The notes under the pieces were generated by a model. The model did not search any database. It was not told where the DNA came from and was given only the letters and a program-made list of their open reading frames with translations. This document shows, piece after piece, positions 5,995-53,090 of a stretch of DNA of 64,000 nucleotides (position 1 is its first letter; every line of letters begins with the position of its first letter). The stretch is taken from positions 6,853 through 70,852 of the forward strand of contig JAZKFU010000008.1 of assembly GCA_040386275.1 (NCBI GenBank). Reading direction: 5' to 3'. The stretch is from Patescibacteria group bacterium. Its GTDB lineage: Bacteria; Patescibacteriota; Minisyncoccia; Phycocordibacterales; UBA918. The position numbers and the translations under genes are program-made.

Positions 5995-6095
5995 TCATTT
6001 GCTTTGTCAGACTGCAGTAAAATAAAACTCACCGTACAGAAAGTACGGCTCGCATTATTTTCTTTGTCTTTCGCGCAACTAAAGCCATCTCAAGA
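5995..6095. repeat. intergenic hairpin repeat family member
   Basis: ctgcagtaaaat…tcaCCGTACagaaaGTACGGctcgc…attttctttg… downstream of atpG. Confidence 0.7.
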
Positions 6096-16781: not shown

Positions 16782-18044
16782 ATGCCCGAAAAACGTTATG
16801 TGTTTAGAGTTAAGGAAAACAAACTCTATATAGTCTATATTGCTGAAGATGTAACTTGGGTGTTTGGTAATCTGGAACTTTCGGGCTCTGCTAGTCTGCG
16901 AGGAAAAGTTTTTACCGTTACAGGGGGTGAGATACTGAGTGGGGTTGAGCACTTATCACAAGAAGCAGAATTTCCAATAGGAAAAAAGGAAGGTGAGTAT
17001 TATAAAATTAGTCCTCAGATATTAAGTACTCAAAAACCTATTTTTATACATGAAAGTGTAATTGACGATTTTGAGCCCGAAGATTTTTTCGTAAGGCAGC
17101 CTTATTTTGAAAGAACTGCTGGTGACGGTTCTTCAATAGGAGTTCAAAATGAAAAATTTATTCCGATTTTCCCAGTACTAGAAAAAATGTTTGACGAAGT
17201 GTTGCGTATAGGAGGAGAGGAAGAAAATAGCATACCGTTAGAGGTGTTTAAAAAAGCCATTAGTGTTTTACCTGATAGAAAAGAAGTTAAAAGATATCTT
17301 GATGCAAGAATTGCACATATTATTGGTGAGTACATAACACCAAAAAGAGATTTTGACACTCATCACGAAAAGTTAATTGCACACCGTGAAGCACAACTAA
17401 CAAGGAGAAATTTAACTCCAACTCTGTTCCAAGAAACTAAAGAATTAAAAAAGGAAATTTTTCAGATTGCGTATGATGAACTTAAAAGGATGCTTAATGG
17501 CAATCTAGTAACTATACCTGAAAGTGAATGGCAAGATAAAATTTTGGACATCATATTACTTCTGTACCCCAAATACGTTCACAAAGAAAAGTCTGTGGAA
17601 GTCATTAAAGATCAAGGGTATGGTTTGGTCGATATTATGTTATTTGATGCTGCAGGATTTGTTGATTTGATTGAAGTTAAGAAACCTGAGGTAAATGGGG
17701 TGGGCGTGCTTAGAAAAGCTTTGTACCGTAAAAACTACGTACCGAGCAGAGAACTATCTGGTGCAATAATGCAGGTTGAGAAATATTCATTTTGGTTGTC
17801 TAGGTGGGGTAAAAAAGGAGAGGAAAAGATTCAGCAAAAATATGCGAACGAACTACCAGATGGTATGAAAGTTAAAATAGCGAATCCAACGGGAATAATT
17901 ATCTTCGGGCGAGATGAAGATTTCAACGAAGAAGAAAGACAGGATTTTGAGGTGATAAAAAGAAAATACAAGCATGTGGTCGATATATTGACCTATGATG
18001 ACTTACTAAGGAGGATTGCAAACATAATCAACATACTAGAATAA
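16782..18044 (+). CDS. Shedu-like (DUF4263) PD-(D/E)xK nuclease-domain protein
   Basis: C-terminal region GLVDIMLFDAAGFVDLIEVKKPE … ELSGAIMQVEKYSFWL … GIIIFGRDEDF…VVDILTYDDLLRRI matches my recollection of DUF4263 hallmarks (D…iElK, QxxxY, viiGr, iTYDdLl). Confidence 0.55.
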   Translation: MPEKRYVFRVKENKLYIVYIAEDVTWVFGNLELSGSASLRGKVFTVTGGEILSGVEHLSQEAEFPIGKKEGEYYKISPQILSTQKPIFIHESVIDDFEPEDFFVRQPYFERTAGDGSSIGVQNEKFIPIFPVLEKMFDEVLRIGGEEENSIPLEVFKKAISVLPDRKEVKRYLDARIAHIIGEYITPKRDFDTHHEKLIAHREAQLTRRNLTPTLFQETKELKKEIFQIAYDELKRMLNGNLVTIPESEWQDKILDIILLLYPKYVHKEKSVEVIKDQGYGLVDIMLFDAAGFVDLIEVKKPEVNGVGVLRKALYRKNYVPSRELSGAIMQVEKYSFWLSRWGKKGEEKIQQKYANELPDGMKVKIANPTGIIIFGRDEDFNEEERQDFEVIKRKYKHVVDILTYDDLLRRIANIINILE

Positions 18045-24793: not shown

Positions 24794-24910
24794 TTTAAAA
24801 TCCTCCTTGGATTGCTGGGAACAGGGTTTGAGTTCAACTAATAAATTAGAACACTAAGTGTGTTATGTCAATGTAAAGCTCGCAGGGCTGGATTCGAAGC
24901 TCACAGCTTC

Positions 24911-25140
24911 AGTACAGGTTGTCGCTCGTTTGTTTCCTTTCAGTCACAAACGTGACAGGCTACCTTTTCGAATCCTGCCGTAATTGACATTTAGTCACTT
25001 ACTCCCGGGGCAGGAATTTCGGTTGTTACACAACCAGTATCCCAATTGGTTCTTTTATTTCCTTTCAGTCATAAAAGTGCTCAATTGGGCTTCGAATCCT
25101 GACGTAAGGCACATTTAGTGCCTTACTCCCGGGGAGCATT
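24911..25140 (+). repeat. two tandem ~123-bp units containing tRNA-Asn 3'-end-like segments split by a stable 9-bp hairpin
   Basis: Units start tttcctttcagtca…; each has …cttcgaatcctg[c/a]cGTAA..CAtttaG..TTACtcccgggg…; a further tRNA-3'-end-like fragment in opposite orientation at 24868-24898. Confidence 0.6.
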
Positions 25141-25149
25141 AAAATCAAA

Positions 25150-25172: not shown

Positions 25173-25183
25173 GATTTTATATG

Positions 25184-25506
25184 CTCCCCGGGCAGGATTC
25201 GAACCTGCGACCAATCGATTACACGTATTCATGCGTTACTGCATGGGTGGACTATATCATCACCGGTCACATTATTGTGCTGACGGTGCAAGGCGCTTCG
25301 AAAGTTTTCACTTCCTACTCCCGTTAGGGATAGTCTCTGAACCTTCAATTGGATTTCTCCAAAAGCTTGGCTGCTGATTGCCCTGGCTTGCGCCGTGGGG
25401 GTTCCAGCAATTCACCTTGTTTGCAATATCGATTTCTCGATAAGGCTGCTATTTTGAACATTGTTCAATGTTACAGTCGACTGCTCTACCGCTGAGCTAC
25501 CGAGGA
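25184..25506 (-). tRNA. tRNA-Asn(GUU) interrupted by a 251-nt group I intron (exon 1 = 25506-25473, exon 2 = 25221-25184)
   Basis: Minus strand: TCCTCGG-TA-GCTC-AGCGGTA-GAGC-A-GTCGA-CTGT | intron | TAA-TCGAT-TGGTC-GCAGG-TTCGAAT-CCTGC-CCGGGGA-G. All stems pair; the spliced anticodon loop CTGTTAA and discriminator G match bacterial tRNA-Asn. Confidence 0.8.
25222..25472 (-). ncRNA. group I (IC3-like) self-splicing intron in the anticodon loop
   Basis: Contains P (GAATTGCTGGAA), Q (AATCAGCAGCC), R (GGTTCAGAGACTATCC) and S (GATGATATAGTCC) core elements; IGS GCAG pairs with exon CUGU giving U:G at the 5' splice site; intron ends in G. Confidence 0.8.
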
Positions 25507-25665
25507 AGGTAACTTACTTCAACTTTATCCTAATGCTTAGGGTTCATGACTCTGGTTCGCAGTCGACCAAGGTCGACCTTCTTACTTTCAACTGAGTGAA
25601 CAAAGTGGACAAAATTATTTTGTACATTTTTGAACGAGGGAAGAAAGGAAGTTTACTTACAGAAG

Positions 25666-25746
25666 CTGTTCACTCATTGGGTATTTTTACAAAATCCCTC
25701 AATGAGTCTTGCGAACTGACATTGAGTCAGTTCTCACTCTACCGCT
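25666..25746 (+). ncRNA. structured RNA-like motif, copy 1 (two hairpins between conserved CUUACAGAAGCUGUUCA … UCUUGCGAA … UUCUCAC)
   Basis: Conserved single-stranded segments and hairpins whose stems differ from copies 2 and 3 by fully compensatory changes. Confidence 0.4.
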
Positions 25747-25859
25747 TACGCTACCTCAGGAAGGTGGCTACTTTTTCCTTGAAAATGCTTAACAAATTCA
25801 AGTGCCTGTATTGTACAGAAAAATAGAATATATTCAATACGATGGGCGGGGAGGGGAGT

Positions 25860-30867: not shown

Positions 30868-31146
30868 CTAAGGTGCTTGTTTGCCGTGAATCAGTTGGAC
30901 CAAAATGTCCGCTTGCAGTTGGTAATGTTCTCTTGCCCGTTTACAATCATCCGGCAGTCTACCAAAAATTCTATTTTTGGCTTTCTCATCTTTGTCCAAG
31001 TTAATGCAGGTTTCCACATACTGAGCATACGCATCATGGAACCGCGTCGCTTGTAGATTGATGACCTTTTCGGCTGTACTCATTCCCTGAGCCGCTACTG
31101 GCGAGCACATCATCAGAGCAAACAATACCTGCAAAGTATTCCGCAT
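30868..31146 (-). CDS. small secreted hypothetical protein (start MRNTLQVL)
   Basis: Signal peptide; helical Cys-containing body. Confidence 0.4.
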   Translation of the reverse strand: MRNTLQVLFALMMCSPVAAQGMSTAEKVINLQATRFHDAYAQYVETCINLDKDEKAKNRIFGRLPDDCKRAREHYQLQADILVQLIHGKQAP

Positions 31147-31289
31147 CTCATTTCCTTCCGAGGTTAAATCTACCAAAAACTATACTATTAATAAAATAAA
31201 TGTCAATAATTTTAGTTATCTCAAAAATATTGAGAAGTATTGGATTAAATTTTAGTTTCGTCAAAAAGTACTTAGATGCAAGGCAGTCA

Positions 31290-31330
31290 AAGAAAATAAT
31301 GCGAGCCGTACTTCTTGTACAGTGAGAATT
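31290..31330 (-). repeat. hairpin repeat family member (reverse orientation)
   Basis: gcgagCCGTACttcttGTACagtgag = reverse complement of the ctcaCCGTAC…GTACGGctc core. Confidence 0.55.
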
Positions 31331-31374
31331 TTTAAATAACCTAATTTGTTTCAAAAAGCGTTCAGATACTAGGT

Positions 31375-31454
31375 GTGAGAAAGTCTGGGAGACTTTCGTA
31401 AGACTCATTGTGGTATTTTGAAAAAATACCCAATGAGTGGATAGTTTCTGTAAG
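31375..31454 (-). ncRNA. structured RNA-like motif, copy 2
   Basis: Reverse complement gives CUUACAGAAACUAUCCA-[CUCAUUGGGUAUUUUUUCAAAAUACCACAAUGAG]-UCUUACGAA-AGUCUCCCAGACU-UUCUCAC. Confidence 0.4.
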
Positions 31455-31464
31455 AAAGAAGTAA

Positions 31465-31505
31465 AATGATGCGAGACGTACTTTTTGTACGTTGAACAGC
31501 ATTTT
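31465..31505 (-). repeat. hairpin repeat family member (reverse orientation)
   Basis: gcgagACGTACtttttGTACGTtgaac. Confidence 0.55.
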
Positions 31506-34031: not shown

Positions 34032-35540
34032 TTAAAATTCGTCTAGATATTTTATATCCGCTCCTAAGGAAGCGAGGCGGGCTACTAGATTTTCATAACC
34101 CCGATTGATACTGTAGATGTTACGCAAGACCGAGCGACCAGAACCACCAAGCATCGCGATGAGAAGAATTGTTGCAGGACGCAGAGCGGGCGGACAGATA
34201 AGCTCGGCTGATTTAAGTGGGGTCGGGCCCGTAATGTAAATACGGTGCGGGTCCGCCAAGACCGTGTCCGCTCCAAGTTTCTCGAGTTCAGTAAAATAGA
34301 TGGCTCGCTTTTCATACATCCAATCGTGAATCAGGGTTTGGCCCGAGGCTTGAGTAGCAATCACCGCAAAGAAGGGGAGGTTGTCTGCGTTGAGTCCCGG
34401 GTACGGGCGAGAGTGAACTTTTTCTGGTGAAGCTACTAATTTGCTTGGTTTGATTTTTAGGTCCACCAACTTGGTGTATCCATTTACTGCCAAGTACGGT
34501 TTGGAGGTTGAGTATTGCAAGCCCATTTTTTCCAGCACCAACAGTTCTAGTTCTAAAAACTCAATCGGTGCGCGAGTTATGGTGACTGCTGAGTTAGTTA
34601 CAATCGCTGCTGCGATAAAGAACATACTATCGGTTGGATCTTCTGCTAAGGTGTATTCAATATCTGTATGGATGTCGGCCACCCCGGTGACAGTTAAGGT
34701 GGTAGTCCCAATACCTTCAATCTGTACGCCAAATAGTTTAAGAAAGACACAAATTTCTTGCACCATGTAGTTAGCACTCGCATATTTAATCACCGTTGTG
34801 CCTTCATGTAAGGCTGCGGCAAATAAAACATTTTCCGTAACCGTGTCACCTGATTCATAAAGAATAATTTCAGTCGGTTTTTTTACGTCAGTTGTGACTT
34901 TAAATTCTTTTTCGGTTGTCTCGATGTGCACGCCATAATGTTCAAGCGCGTAAAAATGAGGACGAACGGTCCGACTACCCAATTTACATCCACCAGACTG
35001 TGGGAGACTAAATGAAGACATCTTGTGAATCAGTGCGCCGATGAACATGACGATGCTGCGGGTTTTTCGCGCGGCTTCAACATCAATTTTTTTGAGGTCA
35101 AACTTTTTTGGGGGTGTAATGGTGATGGTGCTACCGGTCCAGACTATGTGCATCCCGATACTTTGCAGTACCTCGATGATTCGGTGTACTTCTTCTATGC
35201 GGGGCATACGATGGAGGGTAGTCACGCCACGGTTTAATAACGAAGCACACAATAGGCCGACAGCGCCGTTTTTACTGGTATTGGTTTCAATGGTACCGGA
35301 GAGTTTTTTGCGTCCGTTAATTTCAACGTTCACCGTGCCAGGTGAAAGGGTAATTAGATTTTTACCTAACGCTACACCAATTTTTTTTAACATCTCAGCA
35401 CTGATATTTTGTGTGCCTGATTCTAAACGAGCGACGGCACTTTGGGTGGTTTTTAATTTTTTAGCCAGTTGGGTTTGCGTAAGGCCGACGGATTCTCTTA
35501 AATCTGCAATTCGATTTCCAATATTTTCCATAGTTCTCAA
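34032..35540 (-). CDS. murA: UDP-N-acetylglucosamine 1-carboxyvinyltransferase fused to an N-terminal XRE-type HTH domain
   Basis: Residues 1-62 (…IADLRESVGLTQTQLAKKLKTTQSAVARLESGTQNISAEMLKKIGVALG) are a Cro/C1 HTH. The remainder is MurA (INGRKKLSGTIETNTSKNGAVGLLCASLL…LPQSGGCKLGSRTVRPHFYALEHYGV with the catalytic Cys). Single uninterrupted 502-aa ORF. Confidence 0.85.
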   Translation of the reverse strand: MRTMENIGNRIADLRESVGLTQTQLAKKLKTTQSAVARLESGTQNISAEMLKKIGVALGKNLITLSPGTVNVEINGRKKLSGTIETNTSKNGAVGLLCASLLNRGVTTLHRMPRIEEVHRIIEVLQSIGMHIVWTGSTITITPPKKFDLKKIDVEAARKTRSIVMFIGALIHKMSSFSLPQSGGCKLGSRTVRPHFYALEHYGVHIETTEKEFKVTTDVKKPTEIILYESGDTVTENVLFAAALHEGTTVIKYASANYMVQEICVFLKLFGVQIEGIGTTTLTVTGVADIHTDIEYTLAEDPTDSMFFIAAAIVTNSAVTITRAPIEFLELELLVLEKMGLQYSTSKPYLAVNGYTKLVDLKIKPSKLVASPEKVHSRPYPGLNADNLPFFAVIATQASGQTLIHDWMYEKRAIYFTELEKLGADTVLADPHRIYITGPTPLKSAELICPPALRPATILLIAMLGGSGRSVLRNIYSINRGYENLVARLASLGADIKYLDEF

Positions 35541-37061: not shown

Positions 37062-39830
37062 ATGTTCGAGCGTTCATCAAAACAATTTGCGTCGCCAGAG
37101 GAGGAAGTGCAATATTTGCGCGAGCGGATTGCGGTGCGCGAACGAGAAATATTAGGACGGACAACGGAAGTTGATCACGCTGATTACGAAACCATTGCCA
37201 AACAAGAGTTACACGACTATGGCATGTTTACACCCAAGGTTATTCTAAATCCCGACCACGCGTTAACTGATCATGAAGTGGCGTCTCATAAAGAAGCACT
37301 CATCACCAGTCGGGACCCGGCTGAACAAATCGTGCAAGTTGCCTTTGAAAAGGGAATTCGCAATGCGCTAACGCTTTTGGAAAAAGTATCCAACCCCTTT
37401 GTGATTGATGAAGTGCATCGGCAATTAATTGAACACATAAAACAAGGGCAAACGGTCCAAGATATGAAAGAAGGGGTACCACCCTGGGGCATATTACACA
37501 TGACGCTGTTTGAAGTGACCTTGCCCGAACTTAAGGGAGTGAATGATAAAGAGTATCAACTAGCTGATTTGGTGGGGATGATGGAGCAGTTGTTTGCGGG
37601 TATGCGCAGTATTGCACATACCGATACCCGTAATACTTTTGTGTTTGAAATTGCGGTGGCTGACAATAGTGATGACATTATTTTTTATACCGCGGTACCA
37701 ACGCAGTTCGTTACCTTGTTTGAAAAACAAACTTTGTCCCTATTCCCGCATGCCGTAATTATCGAACAGCTCCATGACTACAATATTTTTGTACCTAATG
37801 GTACGAGTATTATTGCTGATGTCACCTTAGAGAAACATCCCATTTATCCATTACGCAGTTACGATCAATTTAGTGCTGATCCACTCAATGTAATTTTAAA
37901 TGCTTTTTCAAAAATCGAACGCGAAGGAGGAGGTGCGGCGATGCAATTTATTGTCCGGTATCCAAAAAACGATTACCGTAAAACGTATTCCGAAATATTA
38001 AAGAAAGTGCAAAAAGGCACCAAGCCAAAAGAAGCCATTGCGCGCAGTACGATTGGTGGCGAAATCGGAGCGTCGGTTTCTGAGTTGTTTTTCTCTAAAC
38101 CAAAAAAAGAAGGGGAGTATGAACCACCAAAGGAAGTAGATACTGAAGCGGTAGAATTATTCTCTAAAAAAATTACGAGTCAGATAGTCGAAACTAATAT
38201 TCGGATTGCGGTTTCAGCTACCGTGCCTCACCGAGCTGGTCAAATCATGTCTGAGCTTGCCGCCACCCTGCATCAATTTGCGACGGTTGATAGTAACCAG
38301 TTTGTCATTACTGAACGAAAGGGAACTGCTCTTAAGGTAGCCGAGAAAGCATTTTCATTCCGAGAATTTAATCCTAAAGTCACCATTCCGTTGTCCTTGA
38401 CTGAATTATCTACCATCATGCACTTTACGGGTAATGGTATCTCAACGTCGCCACAATTTAAACAATCAGGCGCCCTGACCGCAGCTGCACCAACTGAAAC
38501 TCCGACCGAGGGGACTCTGCTTGGGATAAACAAACACCGCAACTTGGAGAAGAAAATATTTATGACCGAGAAGGACCGCATGCGCCATTTCTACGTCATT
38601 GGGCAAACCGGTACCGGTAAGTCAGTGTTTTTGAAAAACCTCATTACACAGGATATTTTGCGCGGGGACGGAGTCTGTATGATTGATCCGCACGGGACTG
38701 ATATCGTTGATATATTAGGAGCAATTCCACCGGAACGAGAAAAGGATGTGATTTATTTTGATCCCTCTAATTTGGATATGCCAATTGGGCTTAACATGTT
38801 GGAGTACGACCAAAACAAGCCCGAGCAAAAGACGTTTGTGGTTAATGAGTTGTTTTCAATTTTCCAAAAGTTATACGGTGGCAACCCAGAATCAATGGGT
38901 CCAATGTTTGAACAGTATTTCCGAAATGCGACGTTACTCGTGATGGAAGATCCCGATTCAGGAAATACCTTAATGGATATTTCGCGCGTAATGGCAGACG
39001 CCAAGTACCGTCGAATGAAATTAGAGAAAGCCAAAAATCCAGTGGTGGTGCAATTTTGGCGTGAGATTGCAACCAAAGCCGGTGGGGAGGCATCGCTCGA
39101 AAACATTGTGCCGTACATCGTATCTAAATTTGATGTGTTTACCGCCAACGATTACATGCGTCCAATTATTGGCCAGCAAAAATCAGCGTTTAATTTCCGT
39201 GAAATCATGGATGAGAAAAAAATTCTTCTCGTGAATCTTTCTAAAGGACGATTGGGTGAGATTAACGCTAACTTAATTGGGATGATAATTGTCGGCAAGC
39301 TGTTGATGGCGGCGTTGTCTCGCGTAGATAATGAAGCGATGGATTTCCCACCGTTTTATTTACACATTGATGAGTTCCAAAACGTATCAACACCGTCAAT
39401 TGCCTCAATTTTGTCTGAAGCGCGCAAGTACAAATTAAGTCTCACCATGGCCCATCAGTTTATTGCTCAGCTTGATACTGATATTAAAGATGCGGTGTTT
39501 GGTAACGTAGGCTCTATAGCGTCATTCCGAATTGGTTCAGATGACGCGCAGTTTTTAGAGAGTCAATTTGCTCCCGTATTCCAAGCATCAGATTTAATGC
39601 AGGTACCTAATTACAACGCGATGATTAAAATGCTCGCTAATGGTACGCCAACTAAACCGTTTAGTTTAGCCACGATGCCACCGTTTACCGCCAATAGTAG
39701 TAAGGTGGCCGAACTTAAATCTCGTTCAGCACAACGGTATGGACGCCCGAGAGCCGAAGTAGAAGCTGAAATTGACGCTCGCTATGTGAAAGAGCCACTG
39801 TTGCCACCACCACTTAGTGGTATGATGTAG
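37062..39830 (+). CDS. VirB4/TraC/TraG-superfamily (type IV secretion-like) P-loop ATPase, 922 aa
   Basis: Walker A GQTGTGKS, Walker B LHIDEFQNV, C-terminal ARKYKLSLTMAHQFIAQLD (RKY…Q motif of T4SS ATPases); about 500-aa N-terminal domain without homology I can name. Confidence 0.55.
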   Translation: MFERSSKQFASPEEEVQYLRERIAVREREILGRTTEVDHADYETIAKQELHDYGMFTPKVILNPDHALTDHEVASHKEALITSRDPAEQIVQVAFEKGIRNALTLLEKVSNPFVIDEVHRQLIEHIKQGQTVQDMKEGVPPWGILHMTLFEVTLPELKGVNDKEYQLADLVGMMEQLFAGMRSIAHTDTRNTFVFEIAVADNSDDIIFYTAVPTQFVTLFEKQTLSLFPHAVIIEQLHDYNIFVPNGTSIIADVTLEKHPIYPLRSYDQFSADPLNVILNAFSKIEREGGGAAMQFIVRYPKNDYRKTYSEILKKVQKGTKPKEAIARSTIGGEIGASVSELFFSKPKKEGEYEPPKEVDTEAVELFSKKITSQIVETNIRIAVSATVPHRAGQIMSELAATLHQFATVDSNQFVITERKGTALKVAEKAFSFREFNPKVTIPLSLTELSTIMHFTGNGISTSPQFKQSGALTAAAPTETPTEGTLLGINKHRNLEKKIFMTEKDRMRHFYVIGQTGTGKSVFLKNLITQDILRGDGVCMIDPHGTDIVDILGAIPPEREKDVIYFDPSNLDMPIGLNMLEYDQNKPEQKTFVVNELFSIFQKLYGGNPESMGPMFEQYFRNATLLVMEDPDSGNTLMDISRVMADAKYRRMKLEKAKNPVVVQFWREIATKAGGEASLENIVPYIVSKFDVFTANDYMRPIIGQQKSAFNFREIMDEKKILLVNLSKGRLGEINANLIGMIIVGKLLMAALSRVDNEAMDFPPFYLHIDEFQNVSTPSIASILSEARKYKLSLTMAHQFIAQLDTDIKDAVFGNVGSIASFRIGSDDAQFLESQFAPVFQASDLMQVPNYNAMIKMLANGTPTKPFSLATMPPFTANSSKVAELKSRSAQRYGRPRAEVEAEIDARYVKEPLLPPPLSGMM

Positions 39831-45077: not shown

Positions 45078-45081
45078 TAAA

Positions 45082-45284
45082 GAAGCTATGAAAACGGCAC
45101 ATTGCGTTGTCACTGCTGCGGTACATTTCCTTCCGCCGTGAGAAAGTCTGGGAGACTTTCGCAAGAGGTTGCCAGCTCTTTTGTAAAAGAGCGATAACCT
45201 GAACAGCTTCTGTAAGAAGCAAGAAGTACGTCTACAGAAAATGTCCTTGCGTTCCTAGCACTGCACTCGTTTTCATAGCTTCTT
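45082..45284. mobile_element. MITE-like element with perfect 16-bp terminal inverted repeats
   Basis: agaagctatgaaaacg (45082-45097) and cgttttcatagcttct (45269-45284) are exact reverse complements; interior carries structured-motif copy 3 and a hairpin-repeat fragment. Confidence 0.45.
45138..45216 (-). ncRNA. structured RNA-like motif, copy 3
   Basis: Reverse complement gives CUUACAGAAGCUGUUCA-[GGUUAUCGCUCUUUUACAAAAGAGCUGGCAACC]-UCUUGCGAA-AGUCUCCCAGACU-UUCUCAC. Confidence 0.4.
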
Positions 45285-46976: not shown

Positions 46977-46989
46977 CGGCTTTCGTAAG

Positions 46990-47095
46990 CGGCGCACTTC
47001 TGCGTTGAATTTCATAAAATAAACTTCAACGTACAAAAAGTACGCCTCAGCTTATTTTCTTCATTCGCCTTGAATTGCATCCACTTACAAAACCC
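46990..47095. repeat. intergenic hairpin repeat family member (variant AACGTAC…GTACGCC)
   Basis: ttctgcgttgaatttcataaaat…tcaACGTACaaaaaGTACGCctc…attttcttca…ccttgaattgcatc. Confidence 0.6.
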
Positions 47096-47144
47096 TCACA
47101 AGTCTAAACTTGGAGAATTTATTTTTTAATGGTATTTTTAAAAT

Positions 47145-53004: not shown

Positions 53005-53090
53005 ATTTTATACTGCGTTGCCTGCATTATTTTAGTCCTCACCGTACAAAAAGTACGGCTCGAACAAAAATAACTAGTCGCCTTGTCTAA
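53005..53090. repeat. intergenic hairpin repeat family member
   Basis: tactgcgttgcctgcattatttt…tcaCCGTACaaaaaGTACGGctcgaac…. Confidence 0.65.

Follow-up and report, generated by a model that had tools for sequence, protein, structure and literature searches.

Motif A is an interspersed repeat of ~85-105 nt that folds into three hairpins (P0, P1 and P2) and carries no enzyme gene of its own. The stems of these hairpins are variable, while the unpaired bases are near-invariant, comprising the CUUACAG loop, the C-UGU-N-CA linker, UCUUGC and the 3'-terminal UCUCAC. Three copies occur in the window, the whole stretch of 64,000 nucleotides of Patescibacteria DNA analysed here. The evidence leans towards motif A being mobile but non-autonomous, a repeat whose folded single strand is recognised and which is copied into new sites from its 3' end.

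A sequence-only reading of the window had described three copies with shared single-stranded segments and two intervening hairpins, all of which are present. When aligned, the three copies have CTTACAGAAGCTGTTCA, TCTTGCGAA and TCTCAC in common, and in the two hairpins between these segments the arms change in sequence from copy to copy with complementarity kept. Copy 1 lies at 25656-25737 on the plus strand, ten bases earlier at its start than the 25666 originally assigned, and runs through CTTACAG, the linker, P1, UCUUGCGAA, P2 and UCUCAC (covariance model 90.2 bits, E 5e-19; the match including the P0 arm is 25650-25739). The coordinates first given to the other two copies were exact, with copy 2 on the minus strand at 31375-31454 (31373-31460 with the P0 arm; 88.5 bits; identical in the related contig L119) and copy 3, also on the minus strand, at 45138-45216 (45136-45222; 84.1 bits), reversed within a hairpin of a second repeat, motif B. 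The 17-mer CTTACAGAAGCTGTTCA, allowing up to three mismatches, has four sites in the window against 0.12 expected; three of the four are the copies, and the fourth (16014, three mismatches) is not a copy of motif A. On either strand, each copy forms a better fold than its shuffled versions (z -2.8 to -6.5).

Both hairpins of the earlier structure are real, but a third one at the 5' end had been overlooked. This hairpin, P0, has the form YUUCU-UAC-AGAAR, in which the bases ahead of CTTACAG pair with AGAAR (120 instances inspected). Its closing Y-R pair covaries (CG in 87, UA in 35), and each position of the heptamer CUUACAG is 96-100% conserved. In the covariance-model alignment, conservation falls steeply three bases ahead of P0, and again after TCTCAC save for a weak YC preference. 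In copy 1 the left end has been pushed off by a 70-nt secondary insert in the P0 loop (25586-25655, plus strand), with a CTTAC duplication at both sides. The displaced end lies at 25572-25585 on the plus strand, where GTCGAC, a copy of tRNA anticodon-stem sequence, is followed by the P0 5' arm CTTCT and TAC, and this left junction is identical to that in L021, L069 and L070. A similarly placed insert has been observed in the CTTACAG loop of P0 in L010 (upstream of 3323), a locus from a genome unrelated to that of the window; the two inserts have only short strings in common (GAACAAA, AACGAGGG). In L118, a public contig of the same organism, the contig end falls inside copy 1, which suggests that motif A breaks short-read assemblies.

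The structure was assessed across the family with a covariance model. This model rests on 37 copies aligned with MAFFT, for which the RNAalifold consensus has three hairpins and shows double changes in 13 of 22 pairs. On the window, the model recovers the three copies at 84-90 bits together with two weak ones (25019-25114 and 24894-25000). Preservation of structure under changed sequence had been claimed from the three window copies, with a covariance-model search and a significance test for covariation proposed as checks. Many further covarying copies were found by that search (136 over 100 loci totalling 723 kb, all full length), and the claim is borne out on them: double changes occur in 22 of 22 pairs, standard pairs fill 92.4% of cells as opposed to 68.5% in shuffles, and covariation scores 0.553, compared with 0.172 for shuffles (none of 500 attained 0.553) and 0.04-0.13 with the partners slid, figures that overstate independence since the alignment was fitted to the model and the copies are mutually related, and with which the MAFFT result agrees. 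P1 and P2 types are shuffled among copies. A protein-coding repeat, already thought improbable from the three copies, is ruled out by copy lengths of 74-100 nt that do not go in steps of three and by one copy being frame-shifted relative to the others.

The model alignment also indicates which strand folds. On the strand as originally written, G-U pairs outnumber A-C pairs by 142 to 40, and by 120 to 3 at two P1 positions, a count inflated by family relatedness, yet two different P1 types each have a wobble. The opposite strand would have mismatches at these wobble positions, and therefore the constrained strand is the one first written, in the form of either RNA or single-stranded DNA. The two strands could not be told apart by minimum-energy folds, so that the model-based alignment is needed for this distinction.

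A scan of one genome per species with the pattern CTTACAGAARCT-N30-60-TCTTRCGAA-N14-30-TCTCAC gave at least 113 loci from at least 72 assemblies, the assemblies being counted by accession prefixes among the matches listed. Nearly all of the listed loci are labelled Patescibacteria (Saccharibacteria, Kaiserbacteria, Paceibacteria, Nomurabacteria, Parcubacteria, Taylorbacteria and Gracilibacteria), and several MAGs give five to seven loci each among the matches listed. As far as these data show, motif A is confined to Patescibacteria. It was also observed on contigs L032, L036, L101, L107, L050 and L110, which come from two MAGs labelled Patiriisocius (Bacteroidota) and Azotimanducaceae (Proteobacteria); these carriers may reflect mis-binning or mislabelling, or else spread beyond Patescibacteria. 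Searches of viral contigs, phage genomes and plasmids gave no match to motif A, and a phage or plasmid origin is ruled out on this ground. A known RNA family or ribozyme is likewise ruled out, as Rfam 15 run against the whole window holds no family for motif A, its sole gathering-level match being RF00028 (group I intron, 25229-25467, 79.9 bits); a permissive Rfam search near copy 3 (E up to 10) returned chance-level matches only. No description of motif A was found in a literature search.

Copies of motif A are intergenic and stand in every orientation to their flanking genes, with 28 of the (-,-) class, 19 (+,+), 17 (+,-) and 12 (-,+). A cis-regulatory leader or riboswitch, which would have a fixed sense orientation, is ruled out by the similar numbers of the four classes. 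No consistent promoter or terminator consensus was detected in or beside the window copies, and upstream flanks are unrelated from copy to copy. The neighbours of the window copies are genes for MarR, fasciclin, a holB-like protein, frr, an M50 protease and proteins without Pfam match, and the clustering of 579 neighbouring ORFs from the loci revealed no gene family enriched by the copies. Genes between same-orientation copy pairs encode MFS, HhH-GPD, YidC, RnpA and DivIC; since these are ordinary genes and no family is enriched near copies, the reading of motif A as the end of a larger transposon is rejected. No match to a transposase, reverse transcriptase or integrase was found among the window's 57 ORFs, and neither TnpA (Y1) nor TnpB was found among those ORFs or beside copies. 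A transposase in a fixed position, which the sequence-only reading had named in advance as grounds for its own refutation, was looked for, and none co-occurs with the copies. No replication-strand bias was seen, GC skew being positive window-wide with copies on both strands. Elsewhere in the window, an EPSP-synthase-family (MurA-like) enzyme with an N-terminal HTH_3, an unusual fusion, is encoded at 34032-35540 (minus strand), and a Shedu defence gene (SduA C-terminal domain; 16782-18044, plus strand) and a large VirD4/TraG-like coupling-protein homologue (37062-39830, plus strand) occur in an otherwise housekeeping stretch.

Copies 2 and 3 are contained in motif B, a second repeat of the form ..CTCACC-GTACAAAAAGTAC-GGCTCG..ATTTTCTT, which has six matches in the window against 0.16 expected. 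Four of these are on the plus strand (2502-2519, 6034-6051, 47031-47048 and 53044-53061), and the two on the minus strand, at 31473-31490 and 31303-31320, are hairpins that bracket copy 2 in a unit spanning 31303-31490. Motif B is an imperfect long hairpin with an A-tract before it and a T-tract after it. It is always oriented in the sense of the flanking genes, lies 50-62 nt past the stop codon where measured, is present even within the atp operon, and looks like a REP-like intercistronic module. The modules are ordered with B followed by C (CCTTGAATTGCA), and with D ahead of B in some loci. Motif A is placed in them either forward between B and C or within the B hairpin in reverse orientation, in the latter case taking the place of GTAC or TAC. 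An ORF of 102 aa without Pfam match, with ~400 nt, at 30868-31176 (minus strand) is absent from the otherwise identical L119 (GCA_040384005.1), and this indel starts directly after a motif-B module.

The cassette that holds copy 3 lies between the holB-like gene and frr (45078-45284, plus strand), and perfect inverted repeats of 17 nt (45080-45096 and 45268-45284) form its two ends; its fold reaches -80.8 kcal/mol (z -6.7). This copy had been placed within a MITE-like element bounded by terminal inverted repeats. The 17-nt inverted repeats exist, but they belong to the host cassette and not to motif A, whose own 5' end (YTTCTTACAG) and 3' end (TTCTCAC) are not complementary, so that a DDE-derived MITE with terminal inverted repeats of its own is rejected. 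The fixed-length target duplication of such elements is lacking as well, with flanking repeats of 13-131 nt in only 24 of 116 copies and 2-4 nt replaced.

Comparison contigs, retrieved by an identical frr protein, revealed that these spacers turn over between related genomes. In their genes, L002 and the window are 94-95% identical. In the holB-frr spacer, the difference between the two begins at the stop codon and extends through the right inverted repeat, with L002 (2117-2234) having a B-C cassette without motif A where the window (45078-45284) has copy 3, and the closing inverted repeats differ on both arms in a compensating manner. The spacer between the M50 protease gene and hisS presents the reverse situation, with B-C only in the window (46977-47144) and D, motif A and C in L002 (3928-4314); this L002 copy is 95% identical to copy 1 of the window, which occupies a different locus beside tRNA-Asn. 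The position of motif A therefore changes on the time scale of ~5% gene divergence. As whole spacers were replaced, turnover alone does not separate transposition from cassette exchange. A search for empty sites of copies 1 and 2 gave related contigs that end in the repeat (L118) or have the same copy (L119).

These observations bear on the possibility that motif A is a host-kept, REP/BIME- or BOX-like cis module of mosaic cassettes (motifs B, C and D), spread mainly by cassette recombination, with an influence on DNA topology or on the processing or stability of mRNA. Modular B-(A)-C cassettes, some with long closing stems whose arms change together, do hold copies 2 and 3 along with many more; motif B is sense-oriented 50-62 nt past stop codons, even in the atp operon; whole cassettes are exchanged between related genomes; and P1 and P2 types are shuffled among copies. 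However, motif A takes either orientation in cassettes and relative to transcription, a poor fit to an RNA-level role of a strand-specific fold, and not all copies are in cassettes: some are found in fragments of tRNA D-arms and T-loops or at gene starts, and their junctions are precise to the nucleotide, for which homologous exchange alone is insufficient. A cis module of this kind is considered unlikely, though worth keeping in mind.

The junctions were analysed by aligning the two 200-nt flanks of each copy with one another. Significant flanking direct repeats were detected in 24 of 116 copies, the other 92 being without them. In at least 13 loci the downstream repeat begins exactly after TCTCAC (+0) and is 13-54 nt long, and a further locus has a repeat of 131 nt that begins 2 nt beyond TCTCAC. 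The unit that is repeated represents the first part of the neighbouring gene, which lies on the opposite strand and encodes either a tRNA or a GH1 glycosidase. It corresponds to tRNA-Asn or tRNA-Val positions ~-3 to 23 in eight loci, the window included, and to the first 34 nt and the ribosome-binding region of the GH1 gene in L006, L008 and L054; the same GH1 gene-start fragment is found at the same junction in L073. An exception in orientation is L025, where motif A has a tRNA T-loop as its target and shares its orientation.

On the strand of motif A, the order at these junctions is the intact unit (the real gene), a repeat of 5-14 nt, CTT, the element and the rest of the unit. The 5-14 nt repeat the sequence just ahead of the insertion point, and CTT is the P0 arm. 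Between two and four target bases are replaced by CTT and motif A, namely TGC in tRNAs, GATC, CC, and TAC in motif B, where insertions display a 3-nt replacement without any duplication. The targets end in GGTAGA, TTGGG, GGGAGG or CTCACC. The main tRNA junction is located at positions 23-27, in the D-stem and position 26, and not in a loop. In L054 and L073 a second, different and degenerate copy abuts the first.

Copy 1 illustrates this arrangement. The window carries an intact tRNA-Asn(GUU) gene at 25182-25507 (minus strand), interrupted after anticodon position 35 by the group I intron (RF00028, 79.9 bits; exons read), for which ARAGORN, run on the 64 kb window, reported no tRNA. Hidden, intron-interrupted genes for tRNA-Asn and tRNA-Asp have been described in Patescibacteria, and the window arrangement matches them (PMC13011429). 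Copy 1 had been placed 160 bp upstream of an intron-containing tRNA. The tRNA is real, but the distance is 148 nt and the copy points away from it. The actual link is that copy 1 lies within a duplicated 5' fragment of tRNA-Asn: at 25738-25765 (plus strand), beginning exactly after TCTCAC, stands the reverse complement of tRNA positions ~-3 to 23, the original of which is found at 25485-25510.

At the GH1 loci (L006, L008, L054 and L073), the gene is preceded by its own first 11-14 codons fused to motif A. The fusion nucleotide is identical in the four genomes (TGGG joined to GTGAGA), and the fragment still encodes FPEGFYWG-like residues; the GH1 proteins of these genomes are clearly diverged. 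The reverse strand starting with GUGAGA, an intron in the GH1 gene or the tRNA was considered and rejected, since a complete gene with its own start follows and the pseudo-tRNA has no 3' half. A guide-like pairing between the P2 loop and the target was noticed by eye in L054 only and is not general.

The same junctions could be read in terms of a small-RNA family, with a three-hairpin protein-binding scaffold and, 3' of UCUCAC, an antisense tail targeting the neighbouring tRNA or mRNA, or motif B. Strand-specific G-U pairs and invariant unpaired bases would suit such RNAs, as would the precise boundary between the body and a variable 3' sequence, the identity of that sequence in at least 13 loci as the reverse complement of the adjacent gene start or tRNA 5' half, and the retention of the GH1-start arrangement in four genomes despite the divergence of the GH1 proteins. 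Against this, there is neither a conserved promoter upstream nor a terminator downstream, upstream flanks are unrelated between copies, such a tail is missing from 92 of 116 copies, no gene for a partner protein is found repeatedly near the copies, and the antisense tails in some genomes are decaying duplicates (~70% identical in L054). A small-RNA family is thus distinctly unlikely. The sequence-only reading had left open whether the three copies represent a functional RNA or a structured recognition site of a mobile element; the latter is favoured by the orientations, the lack of a consistent promoter or terminator, the near-identical copies at non-orthologous loci, and the precise 3' junction with duplications.

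A subfamily, A2, is represented in the window by two degenerate copies. One, at 25019-25114 (plus strand; 24.3 bits, E 9e-4), carries P0 and P1 within a palindrome resembling a T-arm, after which comes a tRNA-Asn 3'-end fragment, and a second A2-type copy stands in tandem with it at 24894-25000 (plus strand; 15.7 bits, E 0.08). Both are on the far side of tRNA-Asn, with tRNA-Asn 3'-end fragments coming next. The subfamily also occurs in L026, L030, L061, L070 and L084, with P0 and P1 in the middle of a T-arm-like palindrome (GGAATTTCG ... TTCGAATCC). The window region 24880-25145 (plus strand) was seen to consist of two tandem units, each a T-arm-like palindrome split by P0/P1, a 23-nt hairpin (GTAAGGCAC..GTGCCTTAC) and TCCCGGGG(AGCA), the last being the tRNA-Asn 3' end on the strand opposite the real gene.

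The tRNA anticodon or T stem-loop is the usual core of tyrosine-integrase att sites. Motif A might accordingly be a site-specific recombination site, with P0 mimicking such a stem-loop and the fragments being att-type duplications left by a small integrating DNA. This would account for the tRNA-loop geometry of P0 with its invariant 7-nt centre CTTACAG, the CTTAC-flanked small insert in the heptamer in the window and L010, the A2-type copies in mid T-arm palindromes and the L025 copy in a tRNA T-loop. It is nevertheless very improbable, given that no integrase was found by the copies or in the window, that the main tRNA junction avoids the loops, that the DNA between the repeats is motif A alone, and that phage, viral and plasmid matches are lacking.

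The mobile-repeat reading would bring these features together as follows. A putative trans-acting enzyme would recognise the folded single strand, as RNA or single-stranded DNA, on the strand originally written. Copying into new sites would proceed from the precise 3' end in a template-switching or target-primed fashion, and insertion would replace 2-4 target bases. Landing would mostly take place in tolerant intergenic hairpin modules such as motif B cassettes. Where a tRNA or a gene start is hit, the only survivors would be products with a tandem duplication that leaves an intact copy of the gene, this duplication being either a second slip or the sole survivable outcome where the target is essential. 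Copies would then diversify by compensatory mutation and by recombination shuffling the P1 and P2 types. A copy-choice or target-primed scheme would account for the exact 3' junction, the small replacement and the few target bases continuing after the element. The geometry of duplication plus replacement needs two template switches, or selection on rare products.

Caution is warranted with this reading because no enzyme was found, nor a clean filled/empty pair with flanks otherwise identical, and most copies lack duplications. Also speaking against it are the lack of 5'-truncated copies and of any replication-strand bias. Near-constant unpaired bases in lineages with different labels are unusual in a selfish repeat, as is the retention of motif A at one GH1 junction in four genomes, and both would fit a host function as well. 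In addition, the two polymorphic spacers were replaced wholesale, which homologous cassette exchange could also explain.

In behaviour, motif A most resembles the mosaics of REP/BIME and BOX elements and the miniature elements that derive from IS200/IS605, while its junction anatomy is closest to SINE-type retroposons. REP/BIME elements (REPIN) of Proteobacteria are likewise short, structured, extragenic and non-coding, present in multiple copies in both orientations, clustered and organised as mosaic units. A REP, however, is a single palindrome of 20-40 nt with a 5' GTAG that is mobilised by RAYT (Y1) and is species-specific, whereas motif A has three hairpins with long invariant unpaired segments and spans many differently labelled Patescibacteria lineages. 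The REP/RAYT system is rejected on the three hairpins with other conserved bases, the absence of GTAG and the finding of neither a RAYT nor a flanked enzyme gene. The BOX elements of Streptococcus pneumoniae (boxA-boxB-boxC) resemble motif A in being modular and intergenic, with optional internal modules and strong secondary structure, but are genus-restricted and bear no sequence relation to it. To our knowledge, no transposase is known for BOX elements, and we know of no report in them of precise 3' junctions with duplicated gene starts.

Miniature elements derived from IS200/IS605 (PATEs) share with motif A the lack of terminal inverted repeats of their own, asymmetric hairpin ends, a strand-specific fold and a defined junction nucleotide. 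Within a PATE family the hairpins, which are read by TnpA, are near-identical, and the elements insert 3' of a fixed target of four or five nucleotides, with no bases duplicated or lost. In motif A, by contrast, the stems differ completely within one genome, 2-4 nt are replaced and long duplications occur. An IS200/IS605-type miniature is therefore rejected, as P1 and P2 differ completely between the window copies and the targets are varied, with replacement and duplication. Integron attC sites are also recognised by structure, with short conserved boxes only, a strand-specific fold and variable length. An attC, however, is a single imperfect hairpin that bears R and L boxes and is located at the 3' end of gene cassettes forming arrays beside an integrase, none of which applies to motif A, and this identity is ruled out by the three hairpins and by the scattering of copies between housekeeping genes. 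Rickettsia palindromic elements (RPE) are, like motif A, small structured repeats of reduced, host-dependent genomes that occur also in stable-RNA genes, but they insert in frame into coding genes and are translated, whereas copies of motif A are intergenic or in dead gene fragments.

With SINEs, motif A has in common that it is short, non-coding and non-autonomous, with a precise 3' junction, long variable target duplications, 5'-junction filler and a link to tRNA sequence. Of the features typical of SINEs, the precise 3' end with variable-length duplications is present (at least 13 loci at +0 with 13-54 nt, and one of 131 nt at +2). Unlike SINEs, motif A has no A-tail or other 3' tail, no 5'-truncated copies (none among the 136 covariance-model matches, all of them full length) and no reverse transcriptase in the window. 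We know of no bacterial SINEs. It is quite improbable, though conceivable, that motif A is their bacterial counterpart, a structured RNA or single-stranded DNA copied from its exact 3' end by a DNA end priming on it; this would account for the long target duplications of variable length, the 5'-junction filler and the spread across Patescibacteria without an element-encoded enzyme. Patescibacteria have been reported to be without group II introns (PMC13011429). Motif A is placed here among the small structured non-autonomous interspersed repeats, with a modest chance that its mechanism is new for bacteria.

Patescibacteria have tiny genomes with short spacers, yet dozens of copies of motif A with near-invariant unpaired bases have been kept across many lineages. 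Such invariance of unpaired bases across lineages indicates that something conserved must read motif A. If this reader is a mobility enzyme, it would represent a new way for small DNA to move, and the repeat would be a tool for following how strains of uncultured bacteria turn over. Should the reader instead be a host factor, motif A would constitute a widespread and uncatalogued RNA or DNA signal. Motif A also generates pseudo-tRNA and pseudo-gene-start fragments by which annotation can be misled, and its covariance model could seed a new RNA or repeat family entry.
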